39,458 nt of DNA from the IMG/VR virus record IMGVR_UViG_2698536397_000026; one strand, 5' to 3'. Positions 1,497 through 38,906 of this stretch are shown piece after piece; positions within the stretch are counted from its first letter, which is position 1; the number at the start of each line of letters is the position of its first letter. The DNA comes from a virus. Taxonomy: Duplodnaviria; Heunggongvirae; Uroviricota; Caudoviricetes. The position numbers were made by a program, and so were the translations under genes. Below the pieces are notes generated by a model. That model was not told where the DNA came from, made no database searches, and was given only the letters and a program-made list of their open reading frames with translations.

Positions 1497-3587
1497 ATGT
1501 ATGTCATTGCAAAAGAACTGATTGGCGCGCCCGGAATGCCTGCTACAACAAAAGGTATTCGCCAGGCATTACAACGTTACGTACAAGGGAAAAGCTGTTG
1601 TTCCCGTCGTCGCTCAGGCTCTAAAGCAACTGAATACAGCATCGACTGTTTACCTGAAGTGACGCAGCAGGCATTACGTGAACGTTATGCCCTGCAACTG
1701 ATGACGCAAAAAGCCGATGAATCACCGGCTCCGGTGGTGACAAAGGCCAGACGCTCATCTGACGTGGTTGATGCGGTGGAGGCATATCGCGGATCACCAC
1801 AACTGATGGTCGAACGCCTCAATGCCCTGACTGAAAACCAGCGCCAGGTGGCTGATGCACGAATCGCGATCGTCAGCGAAGTGATGAAAGTCGCGCAACA
1901 ACCCGGTTTCAGCTGCGCGAAAGCTATCCGGTTTATCGTTGACAACCTGGCACGTTCGCAACTGGACGAGCGCATTGTGGCAATGGTTGAGACGGCGAAC
2001 GCCAAAAAGGGAAACAGCCGTGCGTTGAGTGAAATAACGCTGAAACGCTGGATTGCGGCCTTTAACAAGGCGCAGAACGCCGCTGAACGCCTGCTTTTAC
2101 TGGCACCGGGTAAGCGCCAGGAAATAAAAGCCGAAGATATTAACTGGCTGCCCGAATTTCTGGCGCAGTATCGCCAGTCAAACGGCCGACCAATGACCGA
2201 GGCTTACGAGGATTTTGTCGCTGAATGGCAGCACCGGCACGCTGATGAGCCTTATATGCTCGATATCATGCCGTCTTATGACACCATTCGCCGCGCAATG
2301 AAGAAACTGCCGGAAGTGGTGAAACAAAAAGGCCGGGTGACCGGCAGTGAATACCGCCAGCTTGAGGGATTCACGCGCCGCGACTGGTCAAAAATGCCGG
2401 TGAATTATGTCTGGATTGGTGACGGTCACGGCATGAAGCTGAAATGCGCACACCCGGTTCACGGTCGGCCATTTGCACCGGAAGTGACCTTTGTTATCGA
2501 CGGTGGCACGCGCTTTGTGGTGGGCTGGAGCCTTGACCTGGCTGAAAATGTTTTCGCCGTAGCCGGTGCCATACAGCACGGCATTCGCCATCACGGCAAA
2601 CCGTTTCTGTATTACTCGGATAACGGCTCCGGGGAAACCGCCGACATCCTGGATAAGGAGGTTGTGGGGATACTGCCGCGACTGGGGATTAATCACCCGA
2701 CCGGGATTGCCGGTAATCCGCAGGGACGAGGCATTATCGAACGGCTTAACCGCACATTACCGATGCGCATAGCCCGTAAATACCGCACCTATTTCGGGAA
2801 AGGTGCAGATCGCGAGACGTTACGCAAAACCAACCGCGATTTACGCTCGGCATTTACTGCCCTGCAACAGGGCAAACGGCTGAACGCCCGGCAGCAGTCA
2901 GCGATGCGTGATTTACCGTCCTGGTCTGAACTGATTGATGCCATTCGTGACGGTGTTGAGTGGTACAACAACCGGCCGCACGATGAATTACCGGTGAAGC
3001 CGAACGGCAAGCATTACAGCCCGGCGGAGTTCAGAAAAAAACGCCTGGCGGAAGAGGACACGGAAATTGAATGGCTGTCCGATGTTGAGCTGCGGGATAT
3101 GTTCCGGCCGATGGTGGAACGCCCTGTAAGACGCTGTGAAATACGCTGGCTGAATAATATTTACTACGCGCCCGAGCTGCGTGACGAGCATGGTCGTAAG
3201 GTGCTTATCAGCTATGACATTCATGATGCCGAACGAATTACCGTACGTCGCCTGGATGGCAGCGTGATTTGCGAGGCGGTATGGGACGGTAATAAACGCG
3301 AAGCCTTCCCGGTTAGCGCGGAATACTACAAACAGCAGCAACGCCTTAAAGGCATGCGTAAACGCGCAGAGGAAAAAATCCGTGATGCCGAGGATGAGGT
3401 TGTCAACGTGCTGGAGCACAAGCCGCAGGAGCCCTGGCTGGAAAACATATACCGCCCTGTGGGTAATACGGTGACCGTTCAGCAACCGGTCGCTGACGAT
3501 GAACCTGATGAAGAATACGAGCGTAATTTCCAGCGGGGATTGCAGTTGCTGGAAGCGAAATTAAAAGAAAATGACCCGCTGGCCTGA
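1497..3587 (+). CDS. A: Mu-type DDE transposase (MuA-like)
   Basis: 696 aa, second gene of early operon, start overlaps ner stop (TGATATG); size and position as MuA. Confidence 0.85.
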   Translation: MYVIAKELIGAPGMPATTKGIRQALQRYVQGKSCCSRRRSGSKATEYSIDCLPEVTQQALRERYALQLMTQKADESPAPVVTKARRSSDVVDAVEAYRGSPQLMVERLNALTENQRQVADARIAIVSEVMKVAQQPGFSCAKAIRFIVDNLARSQLDERIVAMVETANAKKGNSRALSEITLKRWIAAFNKAQNAAERLLLLAPGKRQEIKAEDINWLPEFLAQYRQSNGRPMTEAYEDFVAEWQHRHADEPYMLDIMPSYDTIRRAMKKLPEVVKQKGRVTGSEYRQLEGFTRRDWSKMPVNYVWIGDGHGMKLKCAHPVHGRPFAPEVTFVIDGGTRFVVGWSLDLAENVFAVAGAIQHGIRHHGKPFLYYSDNGSGETADILDKEVVGILPRLGINHPTGIAGNPQGRGIIERLNRTLPMRIARKYRTYFGKGADRETLRKTNRDLRSAFTALQQGKRLNARQQSAMRDLPSWSELIDAIRDGVEWYNNRPHDELPVKPNGKHYSPAEFRKKRLAEEDTEIEWLSDVELRDMFRPMVERPVRRCEIRWLNNIYYAPELRDEHGRKVLISYDIHDAERITVRRLDGSVICEAVWDGNKREAFPVSAEYYKQQQRLKGMRKRAEEKIRDAEDEVVNVLEHKPQEPWLENIYRPVGNTVTVQQPVADDEPDEEYERNFQRGLQLLEAKLKENDPLA

Positions 3588-3658: not shown

Positions 3659-4591
3659 ATGACTGATATTAACGATGTAATCAAGACCATTGATGAACTT
3701 ATTGATGGCGGCGTACTGACGCAGTATGCCATCGCCAGAGAGGCGGGAATTTCCGACGGCACATTATCGGCTTTCCGTAAGGGAAAATATAAAGGCGATA
3801 ACGCTGCTGTGGCTGCTTCCCTGCGTTCCTGGTATGAGAACTGGAATAAACAAAGCGCACTGCCGGAACCGCCGCAGTTTGTGGAAACGCAGACAGTCCA
3901 GGAGCTGCGCGCACTGTTTCAGGCGGTTCGTCTGATGGGCTGTATTAACGTTATTGTGGGCGTACCGGGTGTGGGTAAAACGGCCACTGCCCGTAATTAC
4001 TGCCAGGAGCAACCAAACACCTGGATGATCACCCTGTCACCCGCGCACTCCAGCGTCACGGAGTGTCTGCTGGAGCTGGCCGATGCGCTGGGGATTGATT
4101 ACACCCGCGCGAACAAAGGGGCATTATCCCGCGCCATCCGCCGTCGCCTGATGGGAACGCGTGGACTGGTGATTGTGGATGAGGCGGATCATCTTGGTAT
4201 TGACGGTCTGGAGCAACTCCGGGCAATTCAGGACGCCACGGGGATCGGGATGGTGCTTATTGGTAACCCGCGCGGATTGTTTAAAGGTGGACGCCGCGCC
4301 TTTGATGATTTATCGCGCCTGTTCAGCCGTCTTGCCCGTACAAAACAACTTCGCAAGGCCAAAAAGGCGGATGTGCTGGCCATTGCCAGGGCGTGGGGGA
4401 TCAGTGGTGAGGCCGAGCTGGCCGTCATGCAGGCTATCGCTGAAAAGCCGGGAGCGTTACGCGTTCTGACACATACGCTTAACCAGGCGTGGCTCACCGC
4501 CAGCGGTGAAGGCGCGGCGCTGACAGAAAAACATATTAATGCGGCCTTTAAAGAGGTTTATACCAACCCTGAATTACTCTCACAGGTGTGA
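3659..4591 (+). CDS. B: transposition ATPase / target DNA activator (MuB-like)
   Basis: 310 aa; Walker A GVPGVGKT and Walker B LVIVDEAD; directly after transposase. Confidence 0.85.
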   Translation: MTDINDVIKTIDELIDGGVLTQYAIAREAGISDGTLSAFRKGKYKGDNAAVAASLRSWYENWNKQSALPEPPQFVETQTVQELRALFQAVRLMGCINVIVGVPGVGKTATARNYCQEQPNTWMITLSPAHSSVTECLLELADALGIDYTRANKGALSRAIRRRLMGTRGLVIVDEADHLGIDGLEQLRAIQDATGIGMVLIGNPRGLFKGGRRAFDDLSRLFSRLARTKQLRKAKKADVLAIARAWGISGEAELAVMQAIAEKPGALRVLTHTLNQAWLTASGEGAALTEKHINAAFKEVYTNPELLSQV

Positions 4592-31599: not shown

Positions 31600-32150
31600 C
31601 CCTGACCCCGCATCAGCGTGCCCTGTTGCAGTTGCTGCCTGACGGGCTGGCATGGGATAAGCGGCCGTCATCCGTTCTTGCGGCTTTGTGCCTGGGCCTC
31701 AGTCATTCCACGGAGCGTGTTTCCTGGACCGGTAACCAGATGCTGGCAGAACGTTTTCCTGATTCATCCCGTCTGCTGCTGGAAGACTGGGAGCGTTATC
31801 TGGGGTTACCGGAATGTGATATGACCGGCGCAACCATTCAGGAGCGTCAGCGTTATGCCGGGAATAAATACCGGATGAAACCCTCTCTTAACCGTGAATT
31901 TTATATCCGGTTTGCGGCAGAGTTTGGTTATGAAATAGATATTCAGCCATCACCGGATTCACAGTGGGTCAGTATTGTCACGATTAACAGTGAAACCGGC
32001 TACCGGAATATGAATGTGCTGGATGATATTCTCACCCCGCTGCGTATTTATGAGGGTGGTGCGCTGGAATGTATTCTGAACCGTTATAAGCCTGCATGGC
32101 AGACGTTTATTTACGTGTATGCAAACAGCCATGAAGAGGAGACTATTTAA
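31590..32150 (+). CDS. tail protein (Mu gp48-like)
   Basis: 186 aa between J-like and tail fibre. Confidence 0.5.
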   Translation: MAVTLTPHQRALLQLLPDGLAWDKRPSSVLAALCLGLSHSTERVSWTGNQMLAERFPDSSRLLLEDWERYLGLPECDMTGATIQERQRYAGNKYRMKPSLNREFYIRFAAEFGYEIDIQPSPDSQWVSIVTINSETGYRNMNVLDDILTPLRIYEGGALECILNRYKPAWQTFIYVYANSHEEETI

Positions 32151-33061
32151 TGTTTCATGTTGATAATAATTCCGGCGTGGCGAATATGCCTGCGCTGGCA
32201 CCGGCGCAGAGTAATACCACCACCTGGTTTACCGAAGGTGACGGACAAAAAGGTATCAGCTGGATTGGTCAGGACTGGCTGAATATTCTCCAGGCCGAAC
32301 TGCTGAATATTCTGGCTGAAGCCAGTATTCAGCCGGATAAGGCGCAGTTAAACCAGCTTACGCTGTCCATTAAAGCCATTATCGCTGCGAATGCCTTTTC
32401 CCGGAAAAACAACCTGAAAGAAATTGCTGATGCCGGTGCGGAAGCCCAGCGTCTTGCCCGTGGTTATCTTGGTCTTGGGGCGCTTGCCACAAAAAACAGT
32501 CTTGGTCCCGGTGACGTTAATGCTCTGGCGAAGGATCAGAACCTTGCCGACCTGGAGAATGCGGGAACCGCCCGTAATAATCTGGATGTTTACAGCAAAA
32601 GCGAAGGTGATAACCGTTACCTGCGCAGGGAGCAGAACGGCGCAGACATTCCGGATAAAGGCGCTTTTATCGATAACGTCGGTTTACGGGAAACGGTAAA
32701 TAAGGCTGCTGATGCCCTGCCATCGGGTGGAACCGCCGTGGCAGCAAACAGACTCGCCACCCCAAGAAATATTAATGGCGTTCCTTTTGACGGAACGCAG
32801 GATATCAACATCACGTCAGGAATGACGCAGTCAACCGCAGATGGCCGGTATGTACAGAATGTTCAGCTTGGAGCACAGAGCTATCATTCACCCGGAGGCA
32901 ATGAAATATCATGGAATTACAGCGCACCTTCCGGTTGTATGCTTTCCGGTATTAACGTGCAGGAAACCGGCTCCCGGTCTGCGGACAATATCGGTGGGGT
33001 CTATTATCGCCCGGTTCAGATTTATATTAATAATGCCTGGAGAACGGTAAGTTCAGTGTAA
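32150..33061 (+). CDS. tail fibre protein (constant N-terminal part plus invertible C-terminal cassette Sv)
   Basis: 303 aa; C-terminal region homologous to an oppositely oriented cassette at 33739..34093; gix-like site inside the gene at about 32679. Confidence 0.7.
   Translation: MFHVDNNSGVANMPALAPAQSNTTTWFTEGDGQKGISWIGQDWLNILQAELLNILAEASIQPDKAQLNQLTLSIKAIIAANAFSRKNNLKEIADAGAEAQRLARGYLGLGALATKNSLGPGDVNALAKDQNLADLENAGTARNNLDVYSKSEGDNRYLRREQNGADIPDKGAFIDNVGLRETVNKAADALPSGGTAVAANRLATPRNINGVPFDGTQDINITSGMTQSTADGRYVQNVQLGAQSYHSPGGNEISWNYSAPSGCMLSGINVQETGSRSADNIGGVYYRPVQIYINNAWRTVSSV
32670..32697. other. left gix-like inversion site (within tail fibre gene)
   Basis: TCGGTTTACGGGA shared in inverted orientation with the right site; one half-site degenerate. 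Confidence 0.45.
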
Positions 33062-33095
33062 ACCACAGAAAAGGGTGCTGAATGCACCCTCTGAA

Positions 33096-33617
33096 TTATT
33101 CCGGTTTTTCCGGCCAGGGAATCGCCTGGTAATGCCCCTCACTGGCAATATCATTAAAGTGCATTTCTTTAAGCTGTCGGATATACGCCATCCAGCGCGT
33201 CAGCTGTAATTTATTTTCATCGCTAATCATGTCCAGTTTTAATTCTGTTTTCCAGTCATCCACGGTTTCGTTGGCTTCCTGGAGCAGCGATGAGCGACGC
33301 TTTTCAGCAACCGTCTTCCAGTTTACCGGCACCTTTGATATCAGGCCATCAGAAAACTGCCAGTTACCGTCAATATTCACACCTTCCGGCAGTTCGTCCA
33401 CTTCAACAACAGTAAAACCTGCCGGATATAAAGCAGAGACATCTTCAGCAACAGAGCAGATAATACCCGTTACAGGCGAAATACAGAGTTTGTATTTCTT
33501 TGTGAAAAGCGGGATAGATTCATAAAAATCCCTTCCGTCCTCACTCTGGAAATACTGAACATCCTCACCATAGGGTTTGTGTTTCGGGTAATATCGTTTG
33601 ACATTAATCAGTTGCAT
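33096..33617 (-). CDS. tail fibre assembly protein (Tfa / U'-like)
   Basis: N-terminal region MQLINVKRYYPKHKPYGEDVQYFQSEDGRDFYE typical of Tfa chaperones; start probably at an internal Met (track ORF extends to 33668). Confidence 0.7.
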   Translation of the reverse strand: MQLINVKRYYPKHKPYGEDVQYFQSEDGRDFYESIPLFTKKYKLCISPVTGIICSVAEDVSALYPAGFTVVEVDELPEGVNIDGNWQFSDGLISKVPVNWKTVAEKRRSSLLQEANETVDDWKTELKLDMISDENKLQLTRWMAYIRQLKEMHFNDIASEGHYQAIPWPEKPE

Positions 33618-33738
33618 AAACATCACCATGTAAATCAATGATAAAAACAGGAATAATACTATCGCCATATACAGGCAATGCTTGTCTGAAATAACGCATA
33701 TTTCAGATGCTGGCTGCTGTGTGCTATGCCCCCGTTAA

Positions 33739-34093
33739 TTAAATACTTGCAGCGGATACCCAATGCCCATTAATACAATATTGTATCTGTCTGTAATAAA
33801 CACGGTCATCACCACCACGCATTTCCCAGTCTCCGTTAGTCTTAAAACCGGTAATCACATTTCCTGATGACAGGGAGTAATTATATTCCAGTCCGCCGCT
33901 TAATGCCTGCGCTCCCAGTCTTACCCCTGTAACATAACGCTGATTGGCCGTTGATTCCGGCATTCCTGACGTAATGTTTATATCCTGCGTGCCGTCAAAG
34001 GCGACACCATTGATTCTGCGGGCATTTGCCAGCCTGCTTGCTGCAACAGCCGTACCGTTTGATGGCAGGGCATTCGCGGCCCTGTTTACAGTA
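33739..34093 (-). CDS. alternative tail fibre C-terminal cassette (S'v), no own start codon
   Basis: Minus-strand frame open from right gix site; encodes ...INGVAFDGTQDINITSGMPESTANQRYV... homologous to the end of the plus-strand fibre gene. Confidence 0.6.
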
Positions 34094-34117
34094 TCCCGTA
34101 AACCGAGGTTTCAGGGA
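34094..34117. other. right gix-like inversion site
   Basis: TCCCGTAAACCGAGGTTTCAGGGA, near-palindromic and close to the Mu gix / Salmonella hix consensus as I recall it; 55 bp upstream of gin. Confidence 0.6.
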
Positions 34118-34172
34118 TGCCGTATATCTGCTTTAAAAGGCCTTTCCATCTCTTTTTAAGGAAGGTAAATAC

Positions 34173-34733
34173 ATGCTGATTGGCTATATACGCGTATCAA
34201 CAAATGACCAGAACACAGGTTTACAAAGAAATGCGCTGGAATGTGCAGGATGTGAGCAGATTTTTGAAGATAAAATGAGCGGAAAAACAACGCAGCGGCC
34301 GGGACTGAAGCGGGCACTGAAGAAACTAAAACCCGGTGACACGCTGATGGTCTGGAAACTGGACAGGCTGGGGCGCAGTATGCGCCACCTTGTTGCGCTG
34401 ACAGATGAATTACAGCAACAGGGGATAAATTTTCGTAGTCTTACTGACAACATTGATACGTCAACCCCCATGGGGCGCTTCTTTTTTCACATAATGGGTG
34501 CGCTGGCAGAAATGGAGCGTGAATTAATTGTCGAACGGACACGGGCTGGTCTTGCAGCTGCCCGTGAAAGGGGACGAACCGGCGGCAGACCCCGTCGTCT
34601 CACGCAGGAACAATACGAGCAGGTCGGGCGTTTACTGGCCGGGGGTGTCAGTCGAAGACAGGTGGCACTTATTTTTGATATCGGCCTTTCAACCCTTTAT
34701 CGTTATTATCCTGCGAGCGTTTCGGAAAAATAA
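34173..34733 (+). CDS. gin: serine recombinase, DNA invertase (Gin/Hin/Cin family)
   Basis: 186 aa; MLIGYIRVSTNDQ... catalytic Ser motif and C-terminal HTH; RBS AAGGAAGG. Confidence 0.9.
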   Translation: MLIGYIRVSTNDQNTGLQRNALECAGCEQIFEDKMSGKTTQRPGLKRALKKLKPGDTLMVWKLDRLGRSMRHLVALTDELQQQGINFRSLTDNIDTSTPMGRFFFHIMGALAEMERELIVERTRAGLAAARERGRTGGRPRRLTQEQYEQVGRLLAGGVSRRQVALIFDIGLSTLYRYYPASVSEK

Positions 34734-34823
34734 GACGCTCCCTTTGTTGGGCCTTTACTGAATTAACGCAAAATGGCGTTTATCGGTCTGTGGATATGAT
34801 AATTCTGTTTATTCAGGAACAGG

Positions 34824-36881
34824 ATGAATATTATGACGTCCAAATGGGTTCAACTATCATCAATGCCCGGAAACTTTACCGTTAAAGTTTCCGGTGGTAC
34901 AGCGGCATTTCTTGAGGCTCCCTTTCCTCCTGCTGAAACGAAAGGAGGAATGACATTTGCTGACTGTCTCATCAGTTTTAATACACAGGATTGCCTGTGG
35001 GTAAGGCCAGTATCCGGTGATCCGAACGTGGAAATTACCGGAGCGGGTATTGGTGCTGTCATTCCGTTAAGTGCTGATGTTGCCGGTACTACTGAACCGT
35101 CAGACTGGGATAATGCAGAAACACATACCCGTCCGGCAGGAAATGAAACTGCTTCCAGCTCCCCTTCCTGGTATTACGTGATTGTTATAGCCGGCCAGTC
35201 CAATGCTTCATCTTATGGTGAAGGGTTGCCCCTTCCGGATTCTTATGATCGTCCTGATCCACGTATTATGCAGCTGGCACGCAGGAATACACAAACCCCC
35301 GGAGGTATTCCCTGCAAATACAATGAAATCATTCCAGCAGATCACTGCCTTCATGATGTTCAGAATATGAGTCTGCTGAACCATCCAAAAGCAGACCTGA
35401 AAAAAGGGCAGTATGGTTGTGTGGGGCAGGGACTTCATATTGCGAAAAAAGTATTACCGGTGATTCCTGCTGATGCCGGGATTTTACTGGTTCCCTGTGC
35501 CCGTGGCGGCTCTGCTTTTACAACCGGCGCAGTTGGCTCATTCGATCCGGCAAGTGGTGCAGCCGAGGCGTCACTACGCTGGGGAGTGGATACCCCACTG
35601 TATCAGGATCTTGTCAGTCGAACTAAAGCGGCACTTGAGGCGAATCCAAAGAATGTGCTGTTATCTGTCGTATGGATTCAGGGGGAAGGAGACCTTAAAG
35701 CGACCCCGGCCCAGCATGGTGCCCAGTTTACTGCGATGGTGAAAAAATTCCGTGCGGATCTTGGTGCTTTCTCCGGTCAGTGTATTGGTGGTTCATCAGA
35801 CAGTGTGCCGTGGTTATGTGGTGACACAACCTATGACTGGAAAGAGAAGAACCCGGCGGCATATGAAACCATTTATAGCGGATATAAAAACCGGGCTTCC
35901 GAGAACATTCACTTTGTTCCACTGATGCACGATGAGTTCGGTAATAAAACCGCGACCAACCTGCCGGAGCACGACCCGGATATCGCTTCTGCCGGGTATT
36001 ATGGTGCGGAATCACGGGGAGATGGCAACTGGACAACAGCATCCAGGGCAACCCATTTTAGCTCCTGGGCGCGCCGTTTTCTGGTCTCAGATCGTTTTGC
36101 ATCAGCAATTCTTAAATATGCAGGTCTGACCTCTGCATTTATTGCCGGTGTGGCCCCTGATGGTGAAGCCCTGCCTCAGCCCGCGCCGGGTGGGAAACCG
36201 GAAGCGCCGACAGGTAGTCAGCCAGGAGGCAGTGAGTCCCCCCATCCGACATCCCCGTCACTCCGTACGCTGCTTTCACTTAAAGCATCAGCAGGAGAAG
36301 CCCCGGCTCAGGGCTGGAAAATTACAGATGGTACAATCCAGCTGACGGACGAAGGTAAAGCGTTGACCGTATCCAAACAAAGCGGAAAAACCTGGACGCT
36401 TACCCATGGAACTGATGCAGCCGGTGAACTTCTGAAGCATGGTGGTCAGTTGACCTGTAAATTCCGTCTGTCAGGTGAAGTAAAAGAAGGCCAGTTTGCT
36501 CTGGGTATTTACCTCCACACCGATACGGTCCCGGAAGGTGTAACCATGAGTGGTACAGGCACACCGTTCCTGATGGCGTATTATCTCCAGACAACAGGCG
36601 GCCAGTTAAATCTGATGCACCATAAAACAGGGGGGAATACGAAACTGGGATCATTTGGAGCCTACAATAACCAGTGGCATACACTTGTCCTGAAGTTTAC
36701 GGCGGGAAGTGCCCAGGTAACGCCTGTGCTGGATGGCACTCCGGGCCAGGCATTCCAGATGGTGAAAGATGCACTTTCCCCTGCCAAAGATACGCTGACA
36801 CTGACAGATGTCACCAAAGGGGCAACTTATGGCGTGTCTTTTGAGAGCGTTGTCCTTGAGGTTAATACCCCTGCGGCATAA
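34824..36881 (+). CDS. SASA/SGNH-family carbohydrate esterase (sialate O-acetylesterase-like) with Pro-rich linker and C-terminal beta-sandwich/lectin-like domain; cargo gene
   Basis: 685 aa; block I IAGQSNASSYGEG, block WIQGEGD, no N-terminal signal peptide; Pro-rich linker PQPAPGGKPEAPTGSQPGGSESPHPTSPS; not part of the Mu gene set. Confidence 0.65.
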   Translation: MNIMTSKWVQLSSMPGNFTVKVSGGTAAFLEAPFPPAETKGGMTFADCLISFNTQDCLWVRPVSGDPNVEITGAGIGAVIPLSADVAGTTEPSDWDNAETHTRPAGNETASSSPSWYYVIVIAGQSNASSYGEGLPLPDSYDRPDPRIMQLARRNTQTPGGIPCKYNEIIPADHCLHDVQNMSLLNHPKADLKKGQYGCVGQGLHIAKKVLPVIPADAGILLVPCARGGSAFTTGAVGSFDPASGAAEASLRWGVDTPLYQDLVSRTKAALEANPKNVLLSVVWIQGEGDLKATPAQHGAQFTAMVKKFRADLGAFSGQCIGGSSDSVPWLCGDTTYDWKEKNPAAYETIYSGYKNRASENIHFVPLMHDEFGNKTATNLPEHDPDIASAGYYGAESRGDGNWTTASRATHFSSWARRFLVSDRFASAILKYAGLTSAFIAGVAPDGEALPQPAPGGKPEAPTGSQPGGSESPHPTSPSLRTLLSLKASAGEAPAQGWKITDGTIQLTDEGKALTVSKQSGKTWTLTHGTDAAGELLKHGGQLTCKFRLSGEVKEGQFALGIYLHTDTVPEGVTMSGTGTPFLMAYYLQTTGGQLNLMHHKTGGNTKLGSFGAYNNQWHTLVLKFTAGSAQVTPVLDGTPGQAFQMVKDALSPAKDTLTLTDVTKGATYGVSFESVVLEVNTPAA

Positions 36882-36938: not shown

Positions 36939-37118
36939 ATGACATATATAAACGTCTGCCTGCTGTATTTCTGCACGGTGGTTTGTTGTCTGTTGCTTGT
37001 CAGCGGTGGTTATAAAATTATTCGCAATTATTTTCGAAATAAAATTGATGCAGCTGCCGAGGAAAAGATAAAAAGCGGTGCTGTAATGCCGCAGCCGAAA
37101 GACTCCGGTCAGATTTAA
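36939..37118 (+). CDS. small membrane peptide (59 aa)
   Basis: RBS GAGTGAGG; hydrophobic N-terminus VCLLYFCTVVCCLLLVSGG; below 60-aa track cut-off. Confidence 0.4.
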   Translation: MTYINVCLLYFCTVVCCLLLVSGGYKIIRNYFRNKIDAAAEEKIKSGAVMPQPKDSGQI

Positions 37119-37153: not shown

Positions 37154-37399
37154 ATGCCAGAGATTAAAGGCACGGTTACTGAAGAGCTTGTCAAACAGGC
37201 ACTTTATTCTGAAGAAGTGAACCGCGTGCTGAAGGCGCAGGTTCGCAAGGATTTTGAGGCACAAATCGACGCATATGTTGATGAAGTGCTGGCCCGAATG
37301 GTTGGTCGTTCTCCGGCTGAAAACAGCACGGAAAATGAGCCTCAACCCGTAGAGCAACCAGAGCCGGTTCAACCCGGAACTGACGGTACTATGATGTAA
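37154..37399 (+). CDS. hypothetical acidic protein (81 aa)
   Basis: RBS AAGGAAAGGAG before ATG; followed by hairpin. Confidence 0.45.
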   Translation: MPEIKGTVTEELVKQALYSEEVNRVLKAQVRKDFEAQIDAYVDEVLARMVGRSPAENSTENEPQPVEQPEPVQPGTDGTMM

Positions 37400-38014: not shown

Positions 38015-38215
38015 ATGTATCGAAACATACGGTGCCGACACTGCAATAAGCTACTGGCACGGGCCAGTTTCAGTTATCTGGAAGTAAAATGTCCGCGCTG
38101 TAAAACCCTCAATCAAATCACATCTCCGAGCGCCACAGAGCACCCCACATACACAAGGAAATCCTGTCGTGGGGAACAGAAAGCAAGTCACATCCCGTAT
38201 CATCAGCACGCCTGA
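38015..38215 (+). CDS. com: Com-like zinc-finger translational activator of mom
   Basis: [30 protein letters not shown] closely parallels Mu Com zinc finger as I recall it; RBS AGGAGG; overlaps downstream mom-like ORF. Confidence 0.8.
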
Positions 38216-38906
38216 ACTTATTCGCTATAACGACAATATCGTTGGTTATGGCTCCCGTGAGTTGCGGGTTGAGACAATAAGTTGCTGGCTGGCCAGACTG
38301 GTTATCGTCAATAAACATTACAGCCACCGTTTCGTAAATAATTCCTACCTTCATCTGGGTATATTTTCAGAACGGGAACTTGTTGGCGTAATGCAATGGG
38401 GTTACGCCCTTAACCCAAACAGTGGTGCACGCGTCGTAACGGGTACGCAGAACCGAGAATATATGGAGCTTAACCGGCTATGGATGCATGACTGTATGCC
38501 GAGAAACTCCGAATCAAGGGCAATCAGTTACGCGCTCAAGCTAATCAGGCAGCTTTATCCGCAGGTACAGTGGGTTCAGTCGTTTGCAGATGAGCGTTGT
38601 GGCTGTCTTGGTGTCGTGTATCAGGCAAGCAATTTTGATTATGTAGGCAGCCATGAATCAACATTCTATGAACTTGATGGCGAGTGGTATCACGAGATTT
38701 GCAGGAGTGCCATTAAACGAGGCGGACAACGAGGTGAACATCTGAGGGCTAATATCGACAGAGCCAGTGTGCATAAGTTCCGACAGTTTCGTTACATCCG
38801 GTTTCTGAACAAGAGGGCCAGAAAACGCCTCAACACAAAGCTATTCAAAGTCCAGCCTTACCCAAAACCACAAACAGTTAAAACTGGTTTGAAAGAGAGT
38901 GAATGA
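38169..38906 (+). CDS. mom: Mom-like DNA modification protein; start codon uncertain
   Basis: 245-aa ORF overlapping com 3' end, last gene before right end, exactly as Mu mom; track start is GTG. Confidence 0.65.

Follow-up and report, generated by a model that had tools for sequence, protein, structure and literature searches.

The locus described here is a G-segment-type host-range switch in a Mu-like E. coli prophage of the O157 Sp18 family, with two alternative tail-fibre tips and a single tail-fibre assembly (Tfa) gene in the invertible segment. At population level, inversion of this segment swaps the tip borne by the constant part of the fibre (Sc). From comparison of related loci we infer, at a probability of roughly 0.5, that both tips are served in trans by a single generalist Tfa, expressed from a promoter that works in either orientation. 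The window (the whole stretch of 39,458 nucleotides that was analysed) carries the following features at this locus:

32150..33061, + strand: tail-fibre gene S as now assembled (303 aa), with the constant part Sc (32150 to ~32680) fused with the Sv cassette
32667..32692, no strand: left crossover site, gixL-like, TTATCGATAACG-TC-GGTTTACGGGAA, inside the fibre ORF
32693..33061, + strand: Sv cassette, a conserved ~45-aa linker plus a ~78-aa class-A tip domain (SfMu S' / P2 gpH type), with its stop at 33061
33070..33092, no strand: GC-rich, terminator-like hairpin separating the convergent genes Sv and Tfa and showing a T-run on the - strand
33096..33617, - strand: Tfa gene (173 aa, 522 bp in PGAP), the ORF being open upstream to 33668
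33618..33738, - strand: AT-rich spacer of 121 nt from the Sv' stop to the Tfa start, with a 9-bp-stem palindrome at 33695-33717; inferred candidate site of an orientation-independent Tfa promoter
33739..34092, - strand (34092 down to 33739): alternative cassette Sv', a class-B tip of the Mu S type, without a start codon of its own
34093..34118, no strand: right crossover site, gixR-like, ATCCCGTAAACC-GA-GGTTTCAGGGAT, a near-perfect palindrome
34173..34733, + strand: serine DNA invertase of the Gin/Hin/Pin family (186 aa), equal to ECs_4992

The two inverted gix-type sites bracket about 1.43 kb, with the Gin homologue adjoining; within lie the current tip Sv (+), the one Tfa gene (-), and the alternative tip Sv' (-). 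Compared with a full G segment it is pared down, each cassette encoding just a short linker and a terminal domain of ~75 aa. Gene S is preceded by homologues of Mu gp47 and gp48 and corresponds to ECs_4989 of Sakai Sp18; its Sc part is 46-48% identical to those of Mu and SfMu. Pfam has no family for the fibre or for either tip, while the PHROGs and PDB sequence searches gave matches: gene S to phrog_1833 'tail fiber protein' (E 3e-166), and Sv to 9cuy_c 'Short tail fiber' (E 5e-16) and to Mu S (5yvq_A). The Sv' tip is 59% identical to that of Mu S, and PGAP lists the silent cassette as a 'phage tail protein, missing N-terminus'. The hairpin between Sv and Tfa has folding energies of -20.1 and -17.9 kcal/mol on the two strands (z about -3 on both), and was also picked up by a terminator scan.

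Invertases of the Gin/Hin/Cin/Pin group have an N-terminal resolvase/invertase catalytic domain, with the active-site Ser at about residue 9-10, and a C-terminal HTH. Both domains are recognized by Pfam in the invertase of the window (PF00239, E 1.4e-51; PF02796, E 1.7e-14), which contains the motif GYIRVSTNDQ and shares 75% identity with Mu Gin (over 181 aa) and likewise with SfMu Gin. In Din systems, the 5' part of the invertase gene contains a recombinational enhancer that depends on Fis; here this part can be aligned with that of Mu gin, with a mean column identity of 73% over four sequences, a value that coding constraint alone could explain. The sequence-only reading had proposed a Gin-type invertible fibre segment with two homologous alternative C-terminal cassettes, and the Gin homologue, the Mu-like position of the left site, the sites themselves, and the cassettes are indeed all present.

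Din crossover sites are 26 bp long and inverted, with 12-bp half-sites flanking an asymmetric 2-bp centre. In the window the core TCGGTTTACGGGA lies at 32679-32691 and its reverse complement at 34094-34106; the first reading of the DNA had the left core right and the right core one position off (34095-34107). The whole 39.5 kb contains no further exact copy of the 12-nt core. The left site sits at the codon position of Mu gixL in the fibre gene (NxGLxETVN), and a left-type crossover site is present in 31 related loci. The inverted repeat as a whole reaches 179 nt at 74% complementarity (32675-32853 against 33932-34110). The inner half-sites of the two sites agree at 11 of 12 positions, and the outer half of the left site, TTATCGATAACG, is no palindromic partner of its inner half, as had been noticed before.

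From this degenerate half-site it had been suggested that the segment is locked, or nearly so. At the level of populations this is refuted, both orientations existing in nature; moreover, the coding sequence of the fibre constrains the outer half, which agrees with the outer half-site of a functional Mu gix (Mu gixL and gixR taken from NC_000929) in 9 of 12 positions. Among complete E. coli genomes, 183 have the segment as in the window and 26 have it flipped, with identities up to 99.9%, counts that come from phylogenetically non-independent genomes and are evidence at the level of populations. Near-clonal strains differ in orientation: OkiPb01678 has the window form and OkiPb01712 the flipped form (each 99.9% identical to its query form), and the O157:H7 strains Z1813 and Z852 are opposite to Z869. 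Both orientations were also found in IMG/VR contigs for most of the tip/Tfa combinations that carry gin. Flipping the segment in silico gives an in-frame fibre of Sc plus Sv' (298 aa), which is present in real genomes, annotated as an 897-bp 'phage tail protein'. At both junctions the predicted flip is borne out by a real flipped genome, which differs from it by only 4 mismatches, all away from the junctions; the inner half-site marker changes place together with the segment, and the crossover junctions fall exactly within the 13-nt core. Homologous recombination by RecA between the 179-nt, 74%-identical arms was considered as the cause of inversion and rejected, because in every catalogued site variant the outermost base of the inner half-site is exchanged as a crossover in the 13-nt gix core predicts. 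The Gin homologue thus recombines the two inverted 26-bp gix-like sites at the central GA/TC dinucleotide, and the 1.43-kb flip fuses Sc in frame with either Sv (the state of the window) or Sv'.

The closest textbook system is the G segment of Mu with Gin (also that of SfMu and D108, and the C segment of P1 with Cin). Common to both are an invertase, here 75% identical to Gin, that adjoins the segment on its right; inverted 26-bp sites centred on GA/TC, of which the left falls at the homologous fibre codon; tips belonging to the Mu S terminal-domain family (PDB 5YVQ) and a Tfa of the Mu U family; and the neighbourhood gp47, gp48, S ... gin ... com, mom. The segment of the window is, however, shorter (1.43 kb against ~3 kb in Mu), as are its cassettes (~120 aa each against ~330), and it has one Tfa gene where Mu has U and U'. 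Here a 121-nt AT-rich spacer sets Tfa apart from the upstream cassette, whereas in Mu the genes are translationally coupled, and an esterase/DUF6645 gene and two small DUF genes stand between gin and com/mom. The P segment of e14 in E. coli K-12, with the invertase Pin of the Gin family, is likewise a small (1797 bp) invertible tail-fibre segment of a prophage; in the K-12 annotation, each of its cassettes has a Tfa gene of its own (tfaP and tfaE). Invertases of the Pin/Gin type are able to act in trans between prophages (PMC12529663).

Tail-fibre assembly proteins of the Caudo_TAP family (Mu U, P2 G, lambda Tfa) combine a conserved C-terminal domain with an N-terminal domain that binds the fibre, and the cognate tip needs them to fold or trimerise. 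The Tfa gene of the window belongs to PF02413 (E 2.4e-18) and to phrog_136 (E 1e-57), and in the PDB search its product aligned with Mu U (5yvq_B) over residues 3-147 (E 1e-15). An extended ORF of 190 aa, starting at 33668, was set aside: the 173-aa start aligns with Mu U and is the choice of PGAP. Only 34 nt separate the stop of Sv from that of Tfa. Searches of the whole window by tblastn with its own Tfa, Mu U, and Mu U' returned this one Tfa and no second one, so that the earlier observation of one Tfa for two cassettes holds; Mu and SfMu carry two (S-U/U'-S'). The content of the segment is therefore not the canonical Sv-U / U'-Sv', with a co-oriented Tfa for each cassette.

The same is true within the family. 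PGAP lists one Tfa in each related genome inspected, and every Sp18-family locus examined in IMG/VR and in E. coli genomes has the one-Tfa layout (about 37 with a full-length Tfa). Among these loci are two Tfa clades (with 60-64% identity), six classes of intact tip, and Gin proteins of 71-100% identity, a diversity drawn mostly from IMG/VR. Sakai Sp18 (ECs_4989-ECs_4992) has fibre (+), Tfa (-), fibre fragment (-), and invertase (+) in the same orientation as the window, and related O157:H7 genomes match the window at 98-99.5%; in Sakai, as in many relatives, the silent cassette is a class-C allele (~56% identical to Sv) instead of the class-B Sv' of the window, the structure being otherwise equal. 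A scan of GTDB species-representative genomes with the fibre protein yielded few true relatives, namely one Citrobacter and one Edwardsiella locus. The more distant Mu-like prophage of Citrobacter braakii ATCC 51113 (also IMG/VR L062), with an Sc 73% identical and a Gin homologue to the right, again has a single Tfa in its invertible segment, convergent with the expressed fibre gene in the one orientation sampled; it differs in its longer cassettes, its Tfa of 229 aa, and an A-type tip that is co-oriented with Tfa. Two Tfa genes were found in the Mu-like relatives L057 and L058 (Sc 64-69% identical), and also in Mu, SfMu, and vB_YpM_44. Judged from these comparisons, the one-Tfa layout is conserved and not accidental.

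The sequence-only reading had left three options for the fibre of the window: it needs no chaperone, it uses the oppositely oriented one in trans, or its chaperone gene was lost. The last is correct as history, but the loss is no recent accident, since the family has kept the layout and a second prophage lineage shows it too. Comparative evidence, namely the conserved layout, the Tfa of the gin-less derivatives, and the pairing patterns (both treated below), favours use in trans over the other two, short of proving it. In this scheme a single generalist Tfa would fold or cap both alternative tips. Lying downstream of Sv', it would be readable from the late fibre transcript; lying antisense, as in the window, it would be transcribed from a travelling promoter in the 121-nt spacer and act in trans on Sc-Sv.

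One-Tfa lineages have a spacer of 55-125 nt upstream of Tfa, 67-78% AT compared with 47% for the window, in which a -10-like hexamer (5-6 of 6) stands 20-35 nt ahead of the ATG; the spacer of Citrobacter braakii is 70 nt long and contains a perfect TATAAT. In two-Tfa phages, the S and U genes are coupled or overlapping. A sigma-70 scan of 32000-34900 returned 7 sites, not above chance (5.0 +/- 2.2 expected), with none in the spacer at threshold; late genes of Mu use C-dependent promoters. A relaxed scan of the spacers picked up only -10-like hexamers with weak -35 partners, too weak for us to claim a promoter.

Derivatives that have lost gin are informative on the use of Tfa. Seven complete genomes and seven IMG/VR contigs are without an equivalent of window positions 33745-34677, and the IMG/VR examples that were aligned share one common deletion junction; E. 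coli CI5 and S1-CAM-01-A are natural strains of this kind. Their fibre and Tfa genes are fixed in the convergent arrangement, with Tfa permanently antisense to the fibre gene. All of them keep an intact Tfa of 522 bp, with pairwise dN/dS of 0.10-0.23 at dS up to 0.43, a signal of purifying selection that could be partly imported by recombination with invertible relatives. The first 111 nt of the spacer upstream of Tfa are 96% identical in these variants.

These derivatives also weigh on the notion that the orientation of the window is a dead end, in which the loss of one Tfa leaves fibres unfolded and infectivity poor, the system being either in decay or an on/off switch of infectivity. It draws on the antisense position of Tfa relative to the late fibre transcript and on the empty sigma-70 scan of the spacer. 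We nevertheless consider it very unlikely: the supposedly dead orientation is that of the majority (183/209 complete genomes) and of Sakai Sp18, which makes packaged, Mu-like particles (PMC2669165); the layout is kept across diverged subfamilies and in the more distant Citrobacter prophage; and the gin-less derivatives, for which this very orientation is the fixed one, have diversified while both their fibre and their Tfa genes stayed intact. No report on the infectivity of Sp18 particles in either orientation was found in the literature consulted.

As to pairing, Tfa appears to be promiscuous, or to tolerate a broad range of tip sequences. Tips B and C share 30% identity, yet the Tfa alleles co-oriented with them are at least 97% identical; for tips B and F (27% identity), the co-oriented alleles are at least 86% identical. 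Between the orphan tips A and E and their partners, identity is 30-46%. A B-type tip goes with Mu U and an A-type tip with SfMu U', although these two Tfa proteins are 91% identical.

A consistent asymmetry runs through all loci of the Sp18 family: without exception, Tfa is co-oriented with a cassette of class B, C, or F, and the other cassette belongs to class A, E, or G. This would also fit a tip class that became Tfa-independent here. Possibly, though we rather doubt it, the class-A tip Sv folds without Tfa, which then serves Sv' only, and inversion toggles between an unchaperoned or uncapped fibre and a Tfa-assisted one; no convincing promoter was found for the antisense Tfa, and a fibre as short as this one (303 aa) may be simpler to fold. 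In other phages, however, the A-type tip is followed, 1-18 nt downstream, by a gene of Tfa size in the same orientation in 7/7 cases checked (four confirmed as PF02413, two annotated as Tfa, and one unannotated), and the Citrobacter one-Tfa segment shows the same pairing. Gin-less variants whose sole tip is of type A or E keep Tfa intact, with the low dN/dS given above, which would be unexpected for a useless gene. The option that no chaperone is needed is weakened by this constant association of the tip type with a co-oriented Tfa elsewhere, together with the maintenance of Tfa in gin-less variants. We regard as unlikely a related scheme in which Tfa stays on the fibre as a tip cap (as in Mu), the class-A tip folds by itself, and the switch toggles the receptor-binding organelle between capped and uncapped states, Tfa having some other role in the gin-less derivatives.

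Shiga-toxin-producing E. coli contain many lambdoid and P2-like prophages, and other prophages of such a polylysogenic host could supply Tfa to the Sv fibre in trans. The apparent tolerance of Tfa proteins for tip sequence agrees with this, as does the nearest Tfa relative beyond the family (51% identity), which is in a lambdoid or Rac-like phage; moreover, complementation between prophages is documented in O157 Sakai (PMC2669165). Such a supply is nonetheless quite improbable: infectivity would depend on the host, yet the family also occurs in hosts that do not produce Shiga toxin, from human, mouse, and environmental sources; late genes of other prophages are not co-induced with the Mu-like phage, and mitomycin C does not induce Sp18 (PMC2669165). 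It also leaves unexplained why gin-less variants retain the resident Tfa.

Inversion of G segments is textbook knowledge and the Sp18 locus has been annotated, hence the switch itself is not new. We found in the literature no explicit description of a one-Tfa invertible segment, the only related remark being from 2009, when the Sakai Sp18 region was called an 'atypical' invertible host-specificity region; nor did we find, in the literature on Sp18 that we consulted, a discussion of the single-Tfa asymmetry, its conservation, or the gin-less derivatives. New here are the conservation of the one-Tfa layout across a diverged family, its recurrence in Citrobacter, the gin-less derivatives, and the patterns of Tfa/tip pairing.

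The locus constitutes a natural experiment on Tfa chaperones: a Mu-like family, common in Shiga-toxin-producing E. coli, has two tips per phage and at least six across the family with one Tfa gene, which much of the time is antisense to the fibre operon. It also bears on annotation: the silent cassette is routinely labelled a pseudogene, and opposite orientations in otherwise identical genomes are real biology and not misassembly. If the chaperone is truly shared, the specificity of Tfa for tips would be far looser than the rule of 'one fibre, one cognate chaperone', and its expression could be independent of the fibre operon. Host range could then be re-engineered by swapping cassettes of ~120 aa with the chaperone untouched, which bears on the receptor-binding proteins of phages and tailocins.

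The window holds an almost complete Mu-like prophage that belongs to the Sp18 family, the Mu-like prophages of Shiga-toxin-producing E. coli. The fibre switch closes the tail module, its fibre gene lying immediately 3' of the gp48 homologue. The features are as follows (tips are assigned to terminal-domain classes A to G):

1497-3587: homologue of Mu transposase A
3659-4591: homologue of Mu transposase B
Also present in the window: homologues of tail sheath, tape-measure, Baseplate_J (gp47) and gp48
32150-33061, plus strand: tail-fibre gene, 303 aa (constant part Sc, and Sv, the currently fused class A tip)
33096-33617, minus strand: gene for Tfa, the tail-fibre assembly chaperone (PF02413, E 2.4e-18)
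34092 down to 33739, minus strand: start-less ORF fragment homologous to the fibre C-terminus (Sv', the alternative class B tip)
34173-34733, plus strand: serine invertase Gin, 186 aa (PF00239, E 1.4e-51; PF02796)
34824-36881, plus strand: 685-aa protein directly 3' of gin, sialate-O-acetylesterase-type SGNH (PF03629) with DUF6645 (PF20350; phrog_143)
36939-37118 and 37154-37399: small DUF1378 and DUF826 genes after the 685-aa gene, then Com/Mom
38169-38906: Mom homologue

The Gin-type segment, the two tip cassettes (ca. 120 aa each) and the lone Tfa gene proposed in the sequence-only reading were all found, and tblastn with three Tfa queries detected no second Tfa anywhere in the window. The alignment of Tfa to Mu U spans both domains, and the stop codons of Sv and Tfa are only 34 nt apart, an interval taken up by a GC-rich hairpin. 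The Tfa ORF stays open for 17 further, hydrophobic codons upstream (33618-33668, minus strand: MAIVLFLFLSLIYMVMF), as it does with one substitution (Y to H) in the gin-less locus L027; PGAP and the Mu U alignment prefer the shorter start. The Sv'-Tfa spacer contains a palindrome with a 9-bp stem (33695-33717; TCTGAAATA-TGCGT-TATTTCAGA on the Tfa-sense strand), which is conserved, apart from minor differences, in every B-type spacer and in the gin-less variants, and may serve in attenuation, RNA processing or protein binding. In all the genomes inspected PGAP calls the silent cassette a pseudogene.

The core TCGGTTTACGGGA of the gix-like crossover sites occurs at 32679-32691 and as its complement at 34094-34106, with no other exact copy in the 39.5 kb; the left position had been read correctly, the right one a single base off (34095-34107). 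The inverted repeat extends over 179 nt at 74% identity because both cassettes start with the same linker of ca. 45 aa. The left site is TTATCGATAACG-TC-GGTTTACGGGAA and the right site ATCCCGTAAACC-GA-GGTTTCAGGGAT; Mu's own record gives TTATCCAAAACC-TC-GGTTTACAGGAA for gixL and TTCCTGTAAACC-GA-GGTTTTGGATAA for gixR. The architecture is alike, the asymmetric centre is identical, and the left site falls on homologous fibre codons (NVGLRETVN in the window, NLGLQETVN in Mu). Its outer half, earlier called degenerate, still matches a functional Mu half-site at 9 of 12 positions. Identity to Mu amounts to 75% for the invertase, 46-48% for Sc, and ca. 30% for Tfa against both U and U'. Mu and SfMu are organized as S-U/U'-S', with two Tfa genes each beginning 2-3 nt after its own fibre gene, whereas the window has one; the Mu G segment measures 3 kb, the invertible segment here 1.43 kb.

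The predicted flipped sequence was built and complete E. coli genomes were searched with both forms, counting an orientation where a single place covered at least 80% of the query. The window orientation was present in 183 genomes and the flipped one in 26, so that the sequence-only reading's suggestion of a locked or inefficient switch is refuted at the population level. Near-clonal pairs have opposite orientations: OkiPb01678 matches the window form at 99.9% identity, OkiPb01712 matches the flipped form at 99.9%, and O157:H7 strains Z1813 and Z852 differ likewise from Z869. A real flipped genome departs from the synthetic flip at four positions, none at the junctions. The single base that separates the two inner half-sites moves with the segment; crossover therefore takes place inside the 13-nt core, as expected of Gin, rather than at some other point in the 74%-identical arms. 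We consider it nearly certain that the layout is as described and that the inversion system is real and active. The 183:26 ratio among these assemblies favours the Tfa-antisense state; founder effects (lysogens founded by the E. coli-infecting fibre type), slow inversion or clonal sampling could account for it.

On loci from IMG/VR, GTDB representatives and E. coli we located Sc, the tips, Tfa, Gin and the esterase that lies downstream. Every Sp18-family locus (ca. 37 with full-length Tfa) has the order Sc, tip, Tfa, tip, Gin, esterase and exactly one Tfa. This layout spans two clades of Tfa that share 60-64% identity, tips of six intact classes (A, B, C, E, F and G) and Gin at 71-100% identity, and both orientations are seen for most gin-carrying tip/Tfa combinations. 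Within the family the cassette without a co-oriented Tfa, the orphan tip, is in all cases of class A, E or G (SfMu S' / P2 gpH type, motif ...GIxVQDxGKNSADNIxGVYYRP...), while the one co-oriented with Tfa belongs to class B (Mu S type), C or F. Two Mu-like loci with Sc 64-69% identical to the window's (L057 and L058) are instead symmetric, with two Tfa genes per segment and overlap between S' and U'. A more distantly related prophage of Citrobacter braakii (L007, and also L062 from IMG/VR; Sc with 73% identity across residues 1-147) shares the one-Tfa layout but, unlike the Sp18 family, has an A-type tip co-oriented with Tfa:

L007 5001-8871 (strain ATCC 51113): fibre 472 aa (plus), Tfa 229 aa (minus), alternative cassette (minus), Gin homologue

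The 685-aa esterase gene lies 3' of the fibre/Tfa module in every Sp18-family locus with enough sequence, and also occurs in more distant relatives without an inversion system (L063, L064). It may resemble the NanS-p esterase cassettes of Stx phages, and is a candidate for a second host-recognition enzyme or for cargo of lysogenic conversion.

All tips belong to one terminal-domain family of ca. 75 aa with common motifs (RYV..(V/I)RLG and YYRP(V/L)Q..(I/L).G.W); a PDB search retrieved 5yvq_A (Mu S) and 9cuy_c ("Short tail fiber"). In seven of seven other phages with A-type tips (SfMu, P2-like PhiR44_2, Rac-SA53, Pectobacterium POP15, Escherichia 19-1-2, Yersinia vB_YpM_44 and Actinobacillus pPE4) a co-oriented Tfa-size gene follows 1-18 nt downstream (four confirmed as PF02413, two annotated as Tfa, one unannotated), and the A-type tip is therefore normally accompanied by a Tfa; that it has become Tfa-independent in the Sp18 family, where it is an orphan, we judge unlikely. 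Tfa alleles at least 97% identical are found with co-oriented tips B and C (30% identical), and alleles at least 86% identical with B and F (27%). Orphan and partner tips are 30-46% identical, and thus no more divergent than these pairs. Mu U and SfMu U' share 91% identity, but the former is paired with a B-type tip and the latter with an A-type one. From such pairings, the tolerance of Tfa for tip sequence appears wide. A summary of North et al. 2019 in PMC9608196 describes the Tfa N-domain as binding the fibre tip, the C-domain as driving trimerisation, and Mu Tfa as remaining on the virion. The best-supported mechanism, to which we give a probability of about 0.5, is that a single generalist Tfa acts on both tips, in trans when antisense. 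Complementation by Tfa genes of other prophages seems improbable.

In the flipped state Tfa lies downstream of Sc-Sv' and can be expressed as part of the late transcript; in the window state a promoter of its own would be required. In all one-Tfa lineages Tfa is preceded by a 55-125 nt spacer, where two-Tfa phages have coupled genes. These spacers (three types in the Sp18 family and a Citrobacter type) contain 67-78% AT, against 47% for the window, and each has a -10-like hexamer matching at 5/6 or 6/6 positions 20-35 nt upstream of the ATG (a perfect TATAAT within the 70-nt spacer of C. braakii ATCC 51113); Tfa has its own Shine-Dalgarno sequence and terminator. A generic sigma-70 promoter scan returned sites not above chance, and the spacer comparison hints at a putative internal Tfa promoter.

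Seven IMG/VR contigs (L023-L027, L034, L039) and seven complete E. coli genomes (among them CI5, L095, and S1-CAM-01-A, L096) have lost the equivalent of window 33745-34677, a deletion that removes the body of Sv' together with the right site and most of gin, with a single junction common to the aligned IMG/VR examples. Fibre (plus) and Tfa (minus) are therefore fixed convergently, in the window orientation. Tfa is intact in all of them (pairwise dN/dS 0.10-0.23, dS up to 0.43), its leader is kept (96% identical over the first 111 nt), and at the junction, 123 nt before the start of Tfa, is a promoter-like sequence that matches at 10/12 positions (ATGATA-17-TATAAT). Sakai Sp18 has exactly the layout and orientation of the window:

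ECs_4989: fibre
ECs_4990 (minus): Tfa
ECs_4991 (minus): fragment
ECs_4992: invertase

Asadulghani et al. (PMC2669165) found that Sp18 DNA is packaged and Mu-like particles are made, and scored its host specificity as atypical. That the window orientation yields defective particles is, in our estimate, slightly less probable still than complementation by other prophages.

Two Stx-converting phage genomes of ca. 93 kb (LC727881.1 and LC727895.1) each have a copy of the window's phage inserted in them, under the label "region of the inserted Bacteriophage Mu-like phage", which suggests that this family has transposed into another prophage. Our literature search found no paper discussing the single Tfa. 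The one-Tfa switch lies at a locus for which the reference O157 genome already has annotation, and is of value chiefly as a natural experiment on how specific Tfa is and on its expression apart from the fibre operon.
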